Source: a virus
Taxonomy: Duplodnaviria; Heunggongvirae; Uroviricota; Caudoviricetes
Length of the DNA stretch: 8,238 nt
IMG/VR virus record: IMGVR_UViG_2548876694_000021
Strand: one strand, 5' to 3'
The translations under genes and the position numbers were made by a program. The notes below the pieces were generated by a model. That model was not told the origin of the DNA, did no database searches, and was given only the letters and a program-made list of their open reading frames with translations. Below, piece after piece: positions 3,727-7,717 of this stretch. Numbering within the stretch: the stretch's first letter is position 1; every line of letters starts with the position of its first letter.

Positions 3727-4847
3727 GCCACATCACCCCTGAATCCCGGCGGAATTTCGGTATCCGGTTCAGAAATATGATTCACACAACGCTGGTTGTT
3801 CGTGCCGCTTACCGGGAGCAACCAGGGGTTTTCAAAATTCCGGTCCGGCCCAAAAAACGTCGTCGCTCGCTGAACAAATTCCGTTCCCGCTTTCCCGGTC
3901 GCCGCCAGGTATCTCGCGTAACGCCTCACACCATCCAGCATGGTCTCTGGTGGCACCCCCTCGCGCAATCTGGCCTTCCAGGCACTGAAAGCGGATTTCT
4001 TCGGGTTTGCCCCAGCACGCAACGGGTATTCCCGCCAGACCTGTTCGAACACATCCGGATAATCCACTCGTCCCACAGACTGCCCGGTGCTTTCCGGGAC
4101 TACCCGATCGGCTTCCCGCTGAATGGCGGAATCGGCTTCAGGCTGCTGCAGTTGGTGTGATTGCTCCGACCCTGCGGTCATCACCTGCTGCACAGCGCCC
4201 GAATCGGCTTTCAGCGCATACGCTGAATCGGCTTCCGGTGTCGTGCCTGCTGGCTGACCAGGATTGACGGTCTGAACATCCCCTGCCTGGTTCGTGGTGT
4301 TTTTTTTGCCATGAACCATAGTGTTTTTGTCCTGTTCCTGTTCTTTCTCCTGCTCCTGTTCCTGTTCTTGGCTTCGAAGCCCCTTAAAAGCCCCTTCGAA
4401 GCCCCTTACCGAATTTCGGCTATTATTCCGCCTCACATCCAGATGGAAATCCGTTTTATATCTGTCGTAAAACACTGACAGAAAAGCGTTTTCAGGTAAT
4501 GATGCATACTCATTCCTGACACCTGCACAACGGTTATCGCCAGGCTTCAACGTTTCCCCAACCTGCCAGGCTGCCATTTCATGGACCCAGACCATCTCTG
4601 CATCATGGTCATAGCTACAAAAACCAGCTTCAACAGCCCTTTTAAGCCCCTTTGAAGCCCCTTCCAGACCAAGCCCGGTTTCATGAGCAAGGTATAAAAC
4701 TGGCAGGTAATACAAACCCAGCATATTTGCGTGAGGGGATGTCATCAGGTAAAAAGCAACAACTTGCGCTTCTGCACCCGCCTTTCTAAGTTCTCTCCCC
4801 GTTTCTCCCAGCCAGAATCGCGGAGAAACTTTTGCGTAATCACGCAT
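3723..4847 (-). CDS. Phage replication initiator / replisome organiser with a DnaT-like C-terminal domain
   Basis: The ORF extends to 4958, but the ATG at 4847 (MRDYAKVSPRFWLGE...) has GAGGTAG upstream and is the likelier start. The C-terminus ...VNHISEPDTEIPPGFRG resembles the C-terminus of primosomal protein DnaT as I recall it. There is a central QEQEQEQEKEQEQ linker. Iteron-like repeats lie inside the gene. Confidence 0.8.
   Translation of the reverse strand: MRDYAKVSPRFWLGETGRELRKAGAEAQVVAFYLMTSPHANMLGLYYLPVLYLAHETGLGLEGASKGLKRAVEAGFCSYDHDAEMVWVHEMAAWQVGETLKPGDNRCAGVRNEYASLPENAFLSVFYDRYKTDFHLDVRRNNSRNSVRGFEGAFKGLRSQEQEQEQEKEQEQDKNTMVHGKKNTTNQAGDVQTVNPGQPAGTTPEADSAYALKADSGAVQQVMTAGSEQSHQLQQPEADSAIQREADRVVPESTGQSVGRVDYPDVFEQVWREYPLRAGANPKKSAFSAWKARLREGVPPETMLDGVRRYARYLAATGKAGTEFVQRATTFFGPDRNFENPWLLPVSGTNNQRCVNHISEPDTEIPPGFRGDVA
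4331..4366. repeat. Imperfect hexanucleotide tandem repeat (CCTGTT)n, encoding the Q/E-repeat linker of the initiator
   Basis: Read directly: cctgttcctgttctttctcctgctcctgttcctgtt. On the coding strand it gives QEQEQEQEKEQEQ. Confidence 0.7.
4375..4407. repeat. Iteron-like direct repeats, cluster A: three copies of AAGCCCCTT at about 11-12 bp spacing
   Basis: Copies at 4376-4384, 4387-4395 and 4399-4407. The spacing is close to one helical turn. They lie inside the initiator gene next to the linker. Confidence 0.5.
4635..4680. repeat. Iteron-like direct repeats, cluster B: two exact AAGCCCCTT copies plus flanking degenerate copies
   Basis: Exact copies at 4644-4652 and 4655-4663 (11 bp apart). 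Degenerate copies at 4635-4643 (agccctttt) and 4671-4680 (aagcccggtt). Confidence 0.45.
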
Positions 4848-5587: not shown

Positions 5588-6013
5588 TTAATGCACAGCC
5601 AGAGTGTTTCCTGCCGGGCCACCACGATTCATCTGATCGAACAGAACGATCGCTGATGCAACGAAATCATCAATATCTTTCACCAGCCGTTCCTTCGTCT
5701 CTACCAACTCCCGAAAATAAGCGGAACTGTGGCTGCGCATTCGGGCCACCAGCGGAGGCGGCATCGCTTTTTCGATCGCTGGTAACAACGCCTGAATTTT
5801 TTTAACCGCATCAGGAGTGTCTTTCTCCACCCAGCGGAAAATTTTCTGAGTATTGCGAGCCATGGCTTCCGGATGGCTGTCGTCATACAGTTCCGGGAAC
5901 GTCATTCCCAGCTCGAAATACGCTTTGGTAATTTTCGCAGCCGGTACTTTTTCGCCGTCCGGATGCGCCCAGGCATTCATCGCCATGCGGATGTGTTCAT
6001 GCTTGATTTTCAT
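5588..6013 (-). CDS. YdaT-like protein (Rac-prophage YdaT family; proposed CII-type regulator)
   Basis: 141 aa starting MKIKHEHI and ending ...TLAVH, matching my recollection of YdaT-family proteins. GGAG lies 8 nt upstream. Its start overlaps the end of the Cro-like gene by 17 nt. Confidence 0.7.
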   Translation of the reverse strand: MKIKHEHIRMAMNAWAHPDGEKVPAAKITKAYFELGMTFPELYDDSHPEAMARNTQKIFRWVEKDTPDAVKKIQALLPAIEKAMPPPLVARMRSHSSAYFRELVETKERLVKDIDDFVASAIVLFDQMNRGGPAGNTLAVH

Positions 6014-6269
6014 GAATCAACTCCGGCGCATTTGATGTGTTAACCTTACATCCAACAGGTAAACCGTCGGTTGGGTTAGGATAAATATCTGGGCGGATTT
6101 CATGCGGGGTAACTTCCCACTTCATTAGTTGGCATAACGGAATTACCTGCTTTGGGGGAACGCCAAAGCTAAACCATTGCCAAACAGTCTGTTGAGCGAC
6201 CCCCATATAACGACCTATTTCAGCCTGAGTGTATTTCTGCCTAATTTTTTCGCGAGTGCTATCTAGCAT
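5997..6269 (-). CDS. Cro/YdaS-like HTH DNA-binding protein (first gene of the leftward early operon)
   Basis: GAGGAGG SD upstream of the ATG at 6269. HTH segment QAEIGRYMGVAQQTVWQW and a ...TPHEIRPDIYPNPTDGLP... motif typical of YdaS-like Cro proteins. It is divergent from the repressor gene. Confidence 0.8.
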   Translation of the reverse strand: MLDSTREKIRQKYTQAEIGRYMGVAQQTVWQWFSFGVPPKQVIPLCQLMKWEVTPHEIRPDIYPNPTDGLPVGCKVNTSNAPELIHENQA

Positions 6270-6297
6270 TTTGCCCTCCTCTAAAAACTATAAGCAA

Positions 6298-6341
6298 AGC
6301 CTACAATAAAAAACTGTATGCAATCAACAGTTTTTTATTGT
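6298..6341 (-). promoter_or_regulatory. OR-like operator (15-bp inverted-repeat arms, 9-bp spacer) overlapping a leftward PR-like promoter
   Basis: ACAATAAAAAACTGT (6303-6317) and ACAGTTTTTTATTGT (6327-6341) are perfect reverse complements. On the minus strand a TTGATT -35-like hexamer (6327..6322) and a TAGGCT -10-like hexamer (6303..6298) sit upstream of the cro-like gene. Confidence 0.6.
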
Positions 6342-6377
6342 GGTGCTTTTAACAGTATTTACCTGTAAAATTGAATA

Positions 6378-6779
6378 ATGATGAGCGCCCTAGAAGTATC
6401 TATGTACAGAATCAGCAAGCTTCTTCAGGAAACTGGATGGAGCCAGGCTGAGCTTGCCCGTAGAATTGGTGTGACACAACAAACTGTTCAACAATGGGTC
6501 AGCGGTAAGGCTACACCTAAAGCCTCAAGTTTGGATAAACTGGTTGAGGTTTCAGGGCATCCATTGCATTGGTTTTTATTGCCTCCTGAAGAGTGTGAGC
6601 AAATTTTCACCCCTGACACGATGAAAATTGGTCCTCGCCAACGCGAACTGCTCCAAGCTTTTAGTGCGTTTCCTGAGGAAGACCAAGAAAAAATGCTTCA
6701 AGAAATCAAAGACAAGAAAAAATCAATGGAAGAAACCATTGCTAGGTGGCTGGCGGCACAAAAAAGCCGCCGGGCGTGA
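6378..6779 (+). CDS. Prophage repressor, XRE/DicA-type HTH; PaaR-like first gene of a three-gene repressor-antitoxin-toxin operon
   Basis: HTH segment SQAELARRIGVTQQTVQQWVSGK. No LexA-type S24 peptidase domain. The C-terminal part (GPRQRELLQAFSAFPEEDQEKM) resembles DicA/RacR-type repressors as I recall them. It is divergent from the cro-like gene. Confidence 0.85.
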   Translation: MMSALEVSMYRISKLLQETGWSQAELARRIGVTQQTVQQWVSGKATPKASSLDKLVEVSGHPLHWFLLPPEECEQIFTPDTMKIGPRQRELLQAFSAFPEEDQEKMLQEIKDKKKSMEETIARWLAAQKSRRA

Positions 6780-6806
6780 CCACAGTACAAGAAGAGGAGT
6801 TATGCC

Positions 6807-6998
6807 ATGGGTACAGCCCTTTCTCCGATAGTTTCAGAATTCGAAACTACCGAACAAGAAAACAGTTACAACGAATGGTTGCGCACTAAAGTAACGTCAA
6901 GCCTTGCAGACACTCGCCCCGCAATTCCACATGACGAGGTAATGGCTGAAATGGAAAATCTTATTGCTCAAATTGCTGTAACTAACAAGAGCGAGTAA
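6807..6998 (+). CDS. paaA: Type II antitoxin partner of ParE (PaaA-like, 63 aa)
   Basis: GAGGAG lies 7 nt upstream of the ATG. Small acidic protein (…SEFETTEQENSYNEWLRTKV…HDEVMAEMENLIAQI). Its stop overlaps the toxin start (TAATG at 6996-7000). It resembles PaaA2 of E. coli O157 prophages as I recall it. Confidence 0.72.
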   Translation: MGTALSPIVSEFETTEQENSYNEWLRTKVTSSLADTRPAIPHDEVMAEMENLIAQIAVTNKSE

Positions 6999-7285
6999 TG
7001 TTACCCATTTTATGGCTACCGTCTGCTCGCGATGATTTGCGCCAGATCATAACTTACATCGCCAAGGAGAACCCACCGGCAGCACGTAGACTAAAAATAC
7101 GCATTGAAACATCGGTATTACCTCTATCTGAGCATCCGTACTTATATCCACCAAGCGAACGGGTTTCTGGATTGAGAGAGATCGTGACCCACCCTAACTA
7201 CATAATCCTGTACAGAGTAGCTGCTTCAAGCATTGAGATTGTAAGCGTGACACATTCTCGGCGACAATTTCCCTTCTCTATCTGA
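6998..7285 (+). CDS. parE: ParE/RelE-superfamily type II toxin (ParE-like, 95 aa)
   Basis: The MLPILWLPSARDDLRQI...EHPYLYPPSERVSGLREIVTHPNYIILYRVAASSIEIVSVTHSRRQF pattern is characteristic of ParE toxins. It is translationally coupled to the antitoxin gene. Confidence 0.85.
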   Translation: MLPILWLPSARDDLRQIITYIAKENPPAARRLKIRIETSVLPLSEHPYLYPPSERVSGLREIVTHPNYIILYRVAASSIEIVSVTHSRRQFPFSI

Positions 7286-7303
7286 GTTGAACAATTTTCA
7301 TAC

Positions 7304-7326
7304 TCCCTCTTTCGAGGGATTTTTTT
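7304..7326 (+). terminator. Putative Rho-independent terminator after the toxin gene
   Basis: Stem TCCCTC (7304-7309) / GAGGGA (7314-7319) with a 4-nt loop, followed by a T-run (7320-7326). Confidence 0.5.
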
Positions 7327-7336
7327 GCCCAAAACA

Positions 7337-7380
7337 ACAATTAAAAACTGTTGACACAAAACAGTTTTTAATTGTAGATT
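7337..7380 (+). promoter_or_regulatory. OL-like operator (15-bp arms, 9-bp spacer) overlapping a rightward PL-like promoter
   Basis: ACAATTAAAAACTGT (7337-7351) and ACAGTTTTTAATTGT (7361-7375) are perfect reverse complements and differ from the OR-like site by one base per arm. A consensus -35 TTGACA (7351-7356) is followed 18 nt later by TAGATT (7375-7380). Confidence 0.6.
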
Positions 7381-7561
7381 ACATACACCAACCACCCACC
7401 CCGCCCCACAGAACGCCGGGCAATACTTCGAGTTACCAGGCAGTGGTCAGGGGGTAAGTAGCCAGCCCGAGGCGTATGAACATGACGGCAGGGTTCAACT
7501 TTAATAACTATGCAGCAGGTTTTTGTTCCGCTACCCGGCGTTAAGGGGAAATGAGGTCAAC

Positions 7562-7717
7562 ATGGATACTATCGATCTTGGCAACAACGAATCTCTGGTG
7601 TACGGCGTGTTTCCCAACCAGGACGGTACATTCACCGCGATGACGTATACCAAAAGCAAAACGTTTAAAACCGAAAATGGTGCCCGTCGCTGGCTGGAAA
7701 GAAACTCAGGTGAGTGA
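7562..7717 (+). CDS. Small early protein (51 aa), YdfA-like (DUF1391) by recollection
   Basis: GAGG lies 5 nt upstream of the ATG at 7562; the ORF track begins at an upstream TTG (7523). Protein MDTIDLGNNESLVYGVFPNQDGTFTAMTYTK... Confidence 0.6.
   Translation: MDTIDLGNNESLVYGVFPNQDGTFTAMTYTKSKTFKTENGARRWLERNSGE

Follow-up and report, generated by a model that had tools for sequence, protein, structure and literature searches.

Introduction

In prophage CP-933P of Escherichia coli O157:H7, the proteins PaaR2, YdaS and YdaT have been characterized as analogues of the phage regulators CI, Cro and CII (Jurenas et al. 2021, PMC8630535). The same study mapped a leaderless PRM promoter, as well as the PR promoter in the intergenic region equivalent to the one described below, by 5′ RACE, and proved leaderless translation of paaR2 (PMC8630535). 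Both regulators footprint that intergenic region, either of them represses the PL promoter downstream of parE2 about 100-fold, and PaaR2 was reported to octamerise (PMC8630535). In phage 434, the operators are 14-bp ACAAT-N4-ATTGT dyads, three at the right operator region (OR) and three at the left one (OL), in which the outer 4+4 bases are conserved, the outer 5+5 are contacted, and the centre is uncontacted but affects affinity (PMC1636474). In the Qin prophage of E. coli K-12, DicA, DicC and dicBp form a bistable switch that is relieved by an antirepressor, dicBp being an active promoter subject to repression (PMC10448788). Here we analysed an 8,238-nt stretch of caudoviricete DNA (IMG/VR record IMGVR_UViG_2548876694_000021; hereafter the window, to which all coordinates refer), in which an initial annotation had read positions 6298–7380 as an immunity region bracketed by two near-identical palindromic operators with mirror-image promoters.

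As judged from comparison of related loci, the conserved unit is a 15-bp box, ACA-N9-TGT, with the half-site ACARK and an A/T-rich centre, which occurs three times at OR and twice at OL. We consider it likely that the locus is a lambdoid switch whose repressor and Cro-like protein both recognise these boxes, one dimer per box. The data support the reading of the window as the immunity region of a lambdoid prophage, with the palindromes in its OR/PR and OL/PL regions, because the gene order (ydaT, ydaS/cro, OR, repressor, paaA, parE, terminator, OL, ydfA...dicB) matches that of the characterized CP-933P and Qin switches. The OR/PR and OL/PL layout with outward promoters in the initial annotation was supported by this gene order and by a box/−35/box/−10 frame that is kept in five genera.

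Operator boxes and predicted promoters

The sequence at 6303–6341 reads ACAATAAAAAACTGT / ATGCAATCA / ACAGTTTTTTATTGT and that at 7337–7375 reads ACAATTAAAAACTGT / TGACACAAA / ACAGTTTTTAATTGT, both being perfect inverted repeats with 15-bp arms and a 9-bp spacer. Between the two sites, the arms differ by a single A/T exchange at arm position 6, mirrored in both arms, and the spacers are unlike, confirming the two near-identical 39-bp palindromes that had been noticed initially. The accompanying proposal, one long dyad on each side in place of three short operators, was not supported. Each arm is its own dyad, starting with ACA and ending with TGT, and so is a weaker copy at 6352–6366 (ACAGTATTTACCTGT) that overlaps the repressor's own promoter; the long-dyad account had overlooked both this third box and the dyad within each arm. 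OR has three 15-bp boxes and OL two.

The three OR boxes, with centres 24 and 25 bp apart, lie in the 108-bp cro–repressor intergenic region and overlap the predicted PR and PRM promoters. O_R1 (6303–6317, ACAATAAAAAACTGT) occupies the PR spacer between the −35 and −10 hexamers; O_R2 (6327–6341, ACAGTTTTTTATTGT) is immediately upstream of the PR −35, its centre at about −44 from the predicted PRM start and repressor ATG; and O_R3 (6352–6366), with a G/C-containing centre and one half-site reading ACAGG, sits in the PRM spacer. At OL, O_L2 (7337–7351, ACAATTAAAAACTGT) is immediately upstream of the PL −35 and O_L1 (7361–7375, ACAGTTTTTAATTGT) occupies the PL spacer, while the place expected for a third box is taken by the operon terminator. 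The half-site pattern occurs in the window as four exact copies plus the copy at 6352–6366 with three mismatches, and none of 200 shuffles reached five matches. Of the six ACA-N9-TGT matches in the window, where about two would be expected, five lie at OR and OL. A search for further operator copies in the rest of the prophage, suggested in the initial annotation, found none, the stricter pattern ACART-N6-YTGT being confined to the five OR/OL boxes within the 41.8 kb of the host prophage. Rfam likewise gave no match within or near the operator regions.

The promoter hexamers claimed initially, a −35-like hexamer in each spacer and a TAG..T −10-like hexamer at each arm edge, are present at both sites. 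The predicted PR (6298–6327, − strand) has the −35 TTGATT (6327–6322), an 18-nt spacer and the −10 TAGGCT (6303–6298), and points toward the cro-like ydaS and ydaT. The predicted PL (7351–7380, + strand), which the promoter scan scored at 10/12 consensus positions, has the −35 TTGACA (7351–7356), 18 nt and the −10 TAGATT (7375–7380), so the hexamer geometry of the two is identical. The predicted PRM (6343–6378, + strand) combines a weak −35, GTGCTT (6343–6348), with the −10 TAAAAT (6366–6371), followed six nucleotides later by the repressor ATG at 6378. Each of the three promoters holds one box between −35 and −10, to which PR and PL add another immediately upstream; the end of O_R1 supplies the T of the PR −10, and TAAAAT begins with the last T of O_R3. 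The repressor ATG is preceded by no Shine-Dalgarno sequence, and the −10-to-ATG geometry is kept in all of the recognition-helix classes described below and in a CP-933P copy (L014), which has GATAAT-N6-ATG. The repressor mRNA is therefore predicted to be leaderless, with PRM starting at the ATG.

Downstream of PL, we observed an untranslated leader (about 7383–7500) that is conserved with L014, L002, L013 and L001, which represent CP-933P, predicted to be heteroimmune, and other genera. Its invariant core is AAGTAGCCAGCC.GAGGC.TA.GAACATGA.GGC. The leader had no Rfam match and folds no better than its shuffles (z = +0.89); it is possibly nut-like, or a processing or termination signal. Immediately after the PL −10 there is a mosaic boundary of the immunity cassette, and from there on the CP-933P leader is homologous.

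Conservation of the boxes among relatives

Homologous loci were collected from assemblies and IMG/VR after a protein search (98% to 42% identity), and a scan of species-representative genomes that used this one repressor as its query returned one locus, in Arsenophonus. The repressors of Salmonella, Raoultella and Arsenophonus are 80%, 67% and 48% identical to that of the window, respectively. Salmonella, Raoultella and Pluralibacter have three ACA-N9-TGT boxes at OR at the window's offsets from the repressor ATG (box centres at −68/−44/−19 by one counting and −67/−43/−18 by another), and Arsenophonus keeps two of the three. At OL, the relatives have two boxes, 23–24 bp apart, that flank a TTGAC −35, with TAGATT, TAGCAT or TAAATT coming next, and the OL spacer is 8 bp rather than 9 in Raoultella and L124, a relative of Raoultella from IMG/VR, as well as in Arsenophonus. 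TTGAyn and TAnnnT likewise persist on the cro side. A box at the position of O_R3 was present in every lineage examined. The paired boxes of the relatives show 1 to 4 mirror mismatches out of 15, and several of their single boxes, including boxes in Salmonella and Pluralibacter, are perfect or near-perfect palindromes (e.g. ACAGTAAATTACTGT).

Variation within E. coli was tested with 40 loci chosen by repressor identity alone (97–100%), which contained 19 distinct upstream regions and were aligned with MAFFT. At OR, 1 of 45 box columns was variable compared with 24 of the remaining 65 intergenic columns (Fisher p = 6e-6), and at OL 2 of 30 compared with 52 of 111 (p = 3e-5), the p-values being indicative since loci within a lineage share ancestry and independence is overstated. 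O_R1 is invariant in the 19 haplotypes and O_R3 has one variable column. Over 19–20 haplotypes with this repressor, variation was concentrated in the spacers and flanks and nearly absent from the boxes. The four spacer bases that complete the PR −35 are nearly fixed, and conservation outside the OR boxes falls mainly on the promoter hexamers, the ribosome-binding site and the O_R2–O_R3 stretch. As ACA...TGT was also the search pattern, the invariance of positions 1–3 is partly circular; box position, positions 4–5 and the conservation test on loci picked by protein identity are independent of that pattern.

Three natural variants depart from the 39-bp symmetry at OL, two of them (L094 and L090) within the set of 97–100% identical repressors. 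In L094 (four contigs), whose repressor is 100% identical, the OL spacer is 10 bp and there is one arm mismatch, L090 (repressor 97–100% identical) has one arm mismatch there, and L065 has the window's recognition helix and OR boxes together with an OL made of two direct-like boxes. Since such asymmetric variants occur naturally, the 39-bp symmetry is not essential.

Two further observations concern this variation. The five promoter-distal bases of the O_R1–O_R2 spacer (6318–6322) vary in every column among the 19 haplotypes, with invariant boxes on either flank, and form a sharp mutational or recombinational hot spot. In L094, the OL variant places the PL −35 and −10 at a 19-nt spacing, which may weaken PL.

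The repressor and the Cro-like protein

The repressor gene (6378–6779, + strand) encodes 133 residues, and its start at 6378 is supported because residues 1–9 are conserved among the homologues. The N-terminal 67 residues form an Xre-type five-helix helix-turn-helix (HTH) domain, whose closest solved relative by sequence is the 434 repressor (phmmer, E = 3e-5; about 30–35% identity over 55 residues), with TQQTVQQW aligned to TQQSIEQL of 434. Residues Q34 and Q35 show no variation in sets of 17 and 24 homologues. Over the C-terminal ~98 residues, identity to PaaR2 is 42% (E = 1e-20), whereas no alignment with PaaR2 was obtained for the N-terminal DNA-binding region. DicA of Qin has a similar overall build (28% identity, E = 6e-12). 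The AlphaFold model (predicted local distance difference test score 82) comprises an HTH domain at residues 4–67, a disordered linker at 68–85 and a helical hairpin at 86–132. Pfam found HTH families only in the 133 residues, and thus no peptidase domain of the LexA/S24 self-cleaving type. Foldseek returned generic Xre-type HTH matches, the 434 repressor among them (template modelling score 0.77), so the link to 434 rests on sequence; the C-terminal helices of the model gave no informative Foldseek match. Judged from these alignments, the repressor is a chimeric PaaR-family protein with a 434-like DNA-binding head.

The Cro-like regulator (5997–6269, − strand; Pfam YdaS, 8e-10) has the recognition helix AQQTVWQW, which also opens with QQ, as do the Cro-like proteins of all lineages with ACA boxes. 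It showed no BLAST similarity to YdaS of CP-933P. The proteins of the immunity region carry only generic annotations, no sequenced phage in the phage collection has a repressor more than 60% identical, and our literature search found no published description of this repressor, these boxes or this immunity type.

We further compared recognition helices and boxes across the homologues, with the upstream regions aligned on the PRM −10. Every helix class has three boxes in the same frame, and half-site positions 4–5 follow the recognition helix: helices of the ...TVQQW type are found with ACA[AG][TG], ...SVQKW with ACAC[TC], ...TVQRW with ACACA or ACTCA, and ...TIQKW with ACAAC. The two Gln residues and ACA are constant across the classes. 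In CP-933P, both PaaR2 and YdaS are without QQ and the repeats are unrelated (GTTTAGT-type). This covariation provides the strongest indirect evidence suggesting that these HTH proteins read the boxes.

Tandem repressor genes were observed ahead of paaA-parE in L063 (1975–2779 of that locus) and also in L062. The first gene of the L063 pair encodes a PaaR2-type protein (METREIRRLRL...) and the second a protein with a 434-type head and a PaaR tail (helix GITQQSVQRW). Such a pair could represent double immunity or a recombination intermediate.

A proposed switch

We propose a model in which repressor dimers, by analogy with lambda, 434 and CP-933P, would fill O_R1/O_R2 and O_L1/O_L2 cooperatively and exclude RNA polymerase from PR and PL. 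Repressor at O_R2, beside the weak PRM −35, would be placed to stimulate PRM, and filling of O_R3 at high repressor concentration would lead to self-repression. The Cro-like protein would act on the same boxes and shut PRM. The PaaR2-like C-terminal helices of the repressor probably mediate higher oligomers, which may be tetramers or octamers, and perhaps looping between OL and OR, which are 1,034 bp apart. PR would drive leftward transcription of cro and ydaT, PL rightward transcription of ydfA, ydfB...dicB, and the paaA-parE pair would ride in the repressor operon. As the repressor is without a cleavage domain, relief would presumably come from an antirepressor or from instability, as has been reported for DicA.

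Several points weigh against this model, in addition to the shared ancestry of the loci and the partial circularity of the search pattern. Protein–DNA binding, transcript starts, the order of site filling, activation and looping are what we infer from the comparisons. PR matches the consensus at 7 of 12 positions and was unlisted by the promoter scan, and no −35 of PRM is convincing. With 15 bp against the 14 bp of 434, the boxes do not allow the dimer geometry of 434 simply to be copied, and OL has only two boxes, compared with the three described for CP-933P and 434. Finally, independent dimer sites would not lead one to expect the exact mirror relation of O1 and O2, including the mirrored fixed difference that separates OR from OL; an exact mirror would arise by chance at about 0.002 per pair, a rough estimate that assumes about nine free positions per box, with OR and OL not independent of each other.

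Alternative readings

This mirror relation is the basis of the alternative that survives best, in which each 39-bp palindrome is one operator, clamped around the −35 by a symmetric repressor tetramer or octamer, and replaces the multi-operator design of lambda. The arms are exact mirrors at both OR and OL, and the sole OR/OL difference is mirrored in both arms. In relatives, too, O1 and O2 tend to be closer as mirror than as direct copies, the mirror/direct mismatches at OR being 0/7, 1/2, 4/6, 2/7, 3/4 and 3/4 for the window and its relatives, and the C-terminal domain resembles PaaR2, which is reported to octamerise. However, the third conserved OR box lies outside the dyad, each arm is itself an ACA...TGT dyad, and some single boxes in Salmonella and Pluralibacter are perfect palindromes. 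Moreover, the paired boxes of the relatives do not mirror each other: Raoultella, Pluralibacter and Arsenophonus have lost this identity, and Raoultella, L124 and Arsenophonus have the 8-bp OL spacer. Even among E. coli loci with the same or a near-identical repressor, L094, L090 and L065 break the OL symmetry, with asymmetric arms, a 10-bp spacer or direct-like boxes. We therefore regard a unit operator as improbable.

The symmetry itself could have several causes, including the two-fold symmetry of a pair of bound dimers, the way in which A-tracts are oriented with respect to the −35, an inverted duplication, or template switching. We hold it equally doubtful that the 39-bp symmetry was selected because a PaaR-type dimer of dimers, or an octamer bridging OL and OR, binds the box pair as a two-fold unit. 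If it was, the −35 would lie at the centre of that unit, and the architecture would be distinct from the side-by-side cooperativity of lambda and 434. Template switching that perfects quasipalindromes is a known mutational process in E. coli, and such 'quasipalindrome correction' during replication, acting on near-mirror boxes, is a non-selective alternative. In the model of independent boxes, each 39-bp palindrome is no more than an O1 and an O2 that in this lineage are exact mirror copies.

We also considered that the boxes serve one regulator alone, or mainly another host or phage protein, with the other regulator binding elsewhere in the intergenic region. The data here do not separate repressor binding from Cro binding, as this alternative would allow. 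However, both proteins open their recognition helix with QQ in every ACA-box lineage and neither does so in CP-933P, and little else is conserved in the intergenic region beyond the hexamers, the ribosome-binding site and the O_R2–O_R3 stretch. Use of the boxes by a single regulator thus appears quite unlikely.

That the palindromes are nucleic-acid structures (hairpin terminators, cruciforms or recombination sites) and not protein operators is highly improbable: although the 39-mers fold into 15–16-bp hairpins of −14.3 and −16.6 kcal/mol (z about −6) and a scan flagged the OL dyad as terminator-like on the − strand, the predicted transcript starts lie outside both dyads and the stems are almost pure A/T, and we rejected the hairpin or terminator reading because the hairpins weaken to values from −5.6 to −12.1 kcal/mol in relatives in which the boxes and promoter frame persist, and because the operon already ends in a separate, GC-rich terminator (7304–7326).

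Prophage context and further features

The window matches E. coli O121 strain RM8352 and many other genomes at 100%, and at least 80% of positions 5900–7700 is covered at one place in 510 of 5,426 complete E. coli genomes, among them O121 and further lineages associated with Shiga toxin. In RM8352, the stretch lies inside a lambdoid prophage, with the terminase, lysis genes, Q, replication genes, ydaT and ydaS on one side, and ydfA, ydfB, dicB, an exonuclease and the integrase on the other.

Downstream of the repressor gene on the same strand are a PaaA-type antitoxin gene (6807–6998; Pfam PaaA2, 5.6e-19; PDB 3zbe, 1.4e-20) and a ParE toxin gene (6998–7285; Pfam ParE, 2.9e-17; PDB 5cw7, 3e-36). 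An intrinsic terminator at 7304–7326 (+ strand), a GC-rich stem followed by T7, ends this repressor-paaA-parE operon. Regulator, paaA antitoxin and parE toxin are thus combined in one operon, the composition that defines a PaaR-PaaA-ParE module. On the − strand, YdaT, the CII analogue (5588–6013), has its match in the solved YdaT structures of CP-933P (PDB 3c4r/8bt1, E about 1e-83), to which it is near-identical in the alignment. The sequence TTGATTTTCATGAATCAA at 6003–6020, across the ydaS stop and ydaT start, is an exact copy of the operator TTGATT-N6-AATCAA published in the YdaT structure paper (PMC9986795), and by analogy with CP-933P it is likely a PRE-type activator site.

Other features of the window were noted away from the immunity region. 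A match to the sok antitoxin RNA lies at 26–200 on the − strand (Rfam RF01794, 107 bits, E = 3e-24), with hokD annotated alongside in O121, indicating that the prophage carries a hok/sok type I toxin–antitoxin locus besides paaA-parE. An alpha/beta hydrolase gene (636–1409, + strand; annotated so in RM8352) stands on the strand opposite to its neighbours and seems to be a moron that was inserted between the replication region and the Q region. Direct repeats at 4107–4238, 4330–4412 and 4627–4679 (GCTTCGAAGCCCCTT..., ATCGGCTTC... and TCCTGTTCCTGTTCTT twice) lie in the O-like replication gene, and resemble iterons or an origin contained within the initiator gene, as is the case in lambda.

Comparison with known systems

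The CP-933P / Sp12 immunity region has the same gene order and orientation as the window, homologous PaaA and ParE, a near-identical YdaT and the same YdaT box; it also shares the PaaR2-type repressor C-terminus and the −10-N6-ATG geometry, and has both an OR and an OL, where each of the two regulators acts on PR, PRM and PL. In contrast, its repressor has an N-terminal DNA-binding domain unrelated in sequence, and the Cro-like proteins of the two are without BLAST similarity. The operators, read from the IMG/VR copy L014, are 18-bp GTTTAGTAA-type repeats, four at OR, with three 'operators' per side, instead of three plus two 15-bp ACA-N9-TGT boxes; GTTTAGTAA-type operators were seen in L014 and were not found in the window. 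The repressor here begins MMSALEVSMYRISKLL and PaaR2 begins MQKKE. Since the repressor start and the operator type differ from PaaR2 and its repeats, the window is not CP-933P, and since it has neither the CP-933P operators nor the CP-933P N-terminal domain, it is classed as a relative that is predicted to be heteroimmune with CP-933P.

The resemblance to 434 lies in DNA recognition. In both systems, T-Q-Q opens the repressor recognition helix and QQ occurs in Cro, the outer operator bases are ACAA/ACAG...TTGT/CTGT around an A/T-rich centre, and there are three OR sites, which in 434 are shared by repressor and Cro. The boxes here are ACAR-N7-YTGT (15 bp), with one extra central base pair compared with the 14-bp ACAA-N6-TTGT; OL has two boxes instead of three, and a short helical PaaR2/DicA-like tail takes the place of the RecA-sensitive peptidase domain.

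Qin has, like this prophage, a short non-cleavable repressor and a PL-like promoter that drives ydfA-ydfB...dicB, with two boxes flanking a TTGACC −35. It differs in the box type, TTGTTAGT...ACTAACAA, in the absence of a toxin–antitoxin pair from the repressor operon, and in having DicC and not a YdaS-type Cro.

A side observation was made on a Qin copy, L173, whose dicA-dicC and dicA-ydfA intergenic regions (1370–1390 and 1878–1935 of that locus) contain TTGTTAGT...ACTAACAA-type boxes, arranged in one case as ATGTTAGCTATAGCATACAA - TTGACC - ATGTTAGTCATGGCTAATCTTG. As this is the same box/−35/box layout as here, the design is common to at least three specificity types.

Lambda has, as here, divergent PR and PRM promoters, three operators about 24 bp apart, a leaderless cI, a distant OL at PL and a CII-type activator site between cro and cII. 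Unlike the present locus, it has 17-bp operators, a LexA-like cleavable repressor, three OL sites, and rexAB downstream of cI.

The operator boxes allow homoimmune and heteroimmune prophages to be predicted, and they are targets for reporter and induction studies of the switch that controls the ParE toxin and the dicB/ydfA host-killing operon. The QQ, QK and QR helix–operator pairs on a constant scaffold offer a natural series for the evolution of HTH specificity. The locus also shows unrelated DNA-binding heads joined to the PaaR2-type oligomerisation tail. The overall design would be expected by a specialist and is not surprising; the new part is a specificity variant of a well-known switch. 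Classified by its sequence, the locus is a member of the lambdoid switch class, and within it of the PaaR-PaaA-ParE / YdaS-YdaT subclass, with a DNA-binding specificity different from that of CP-933P.

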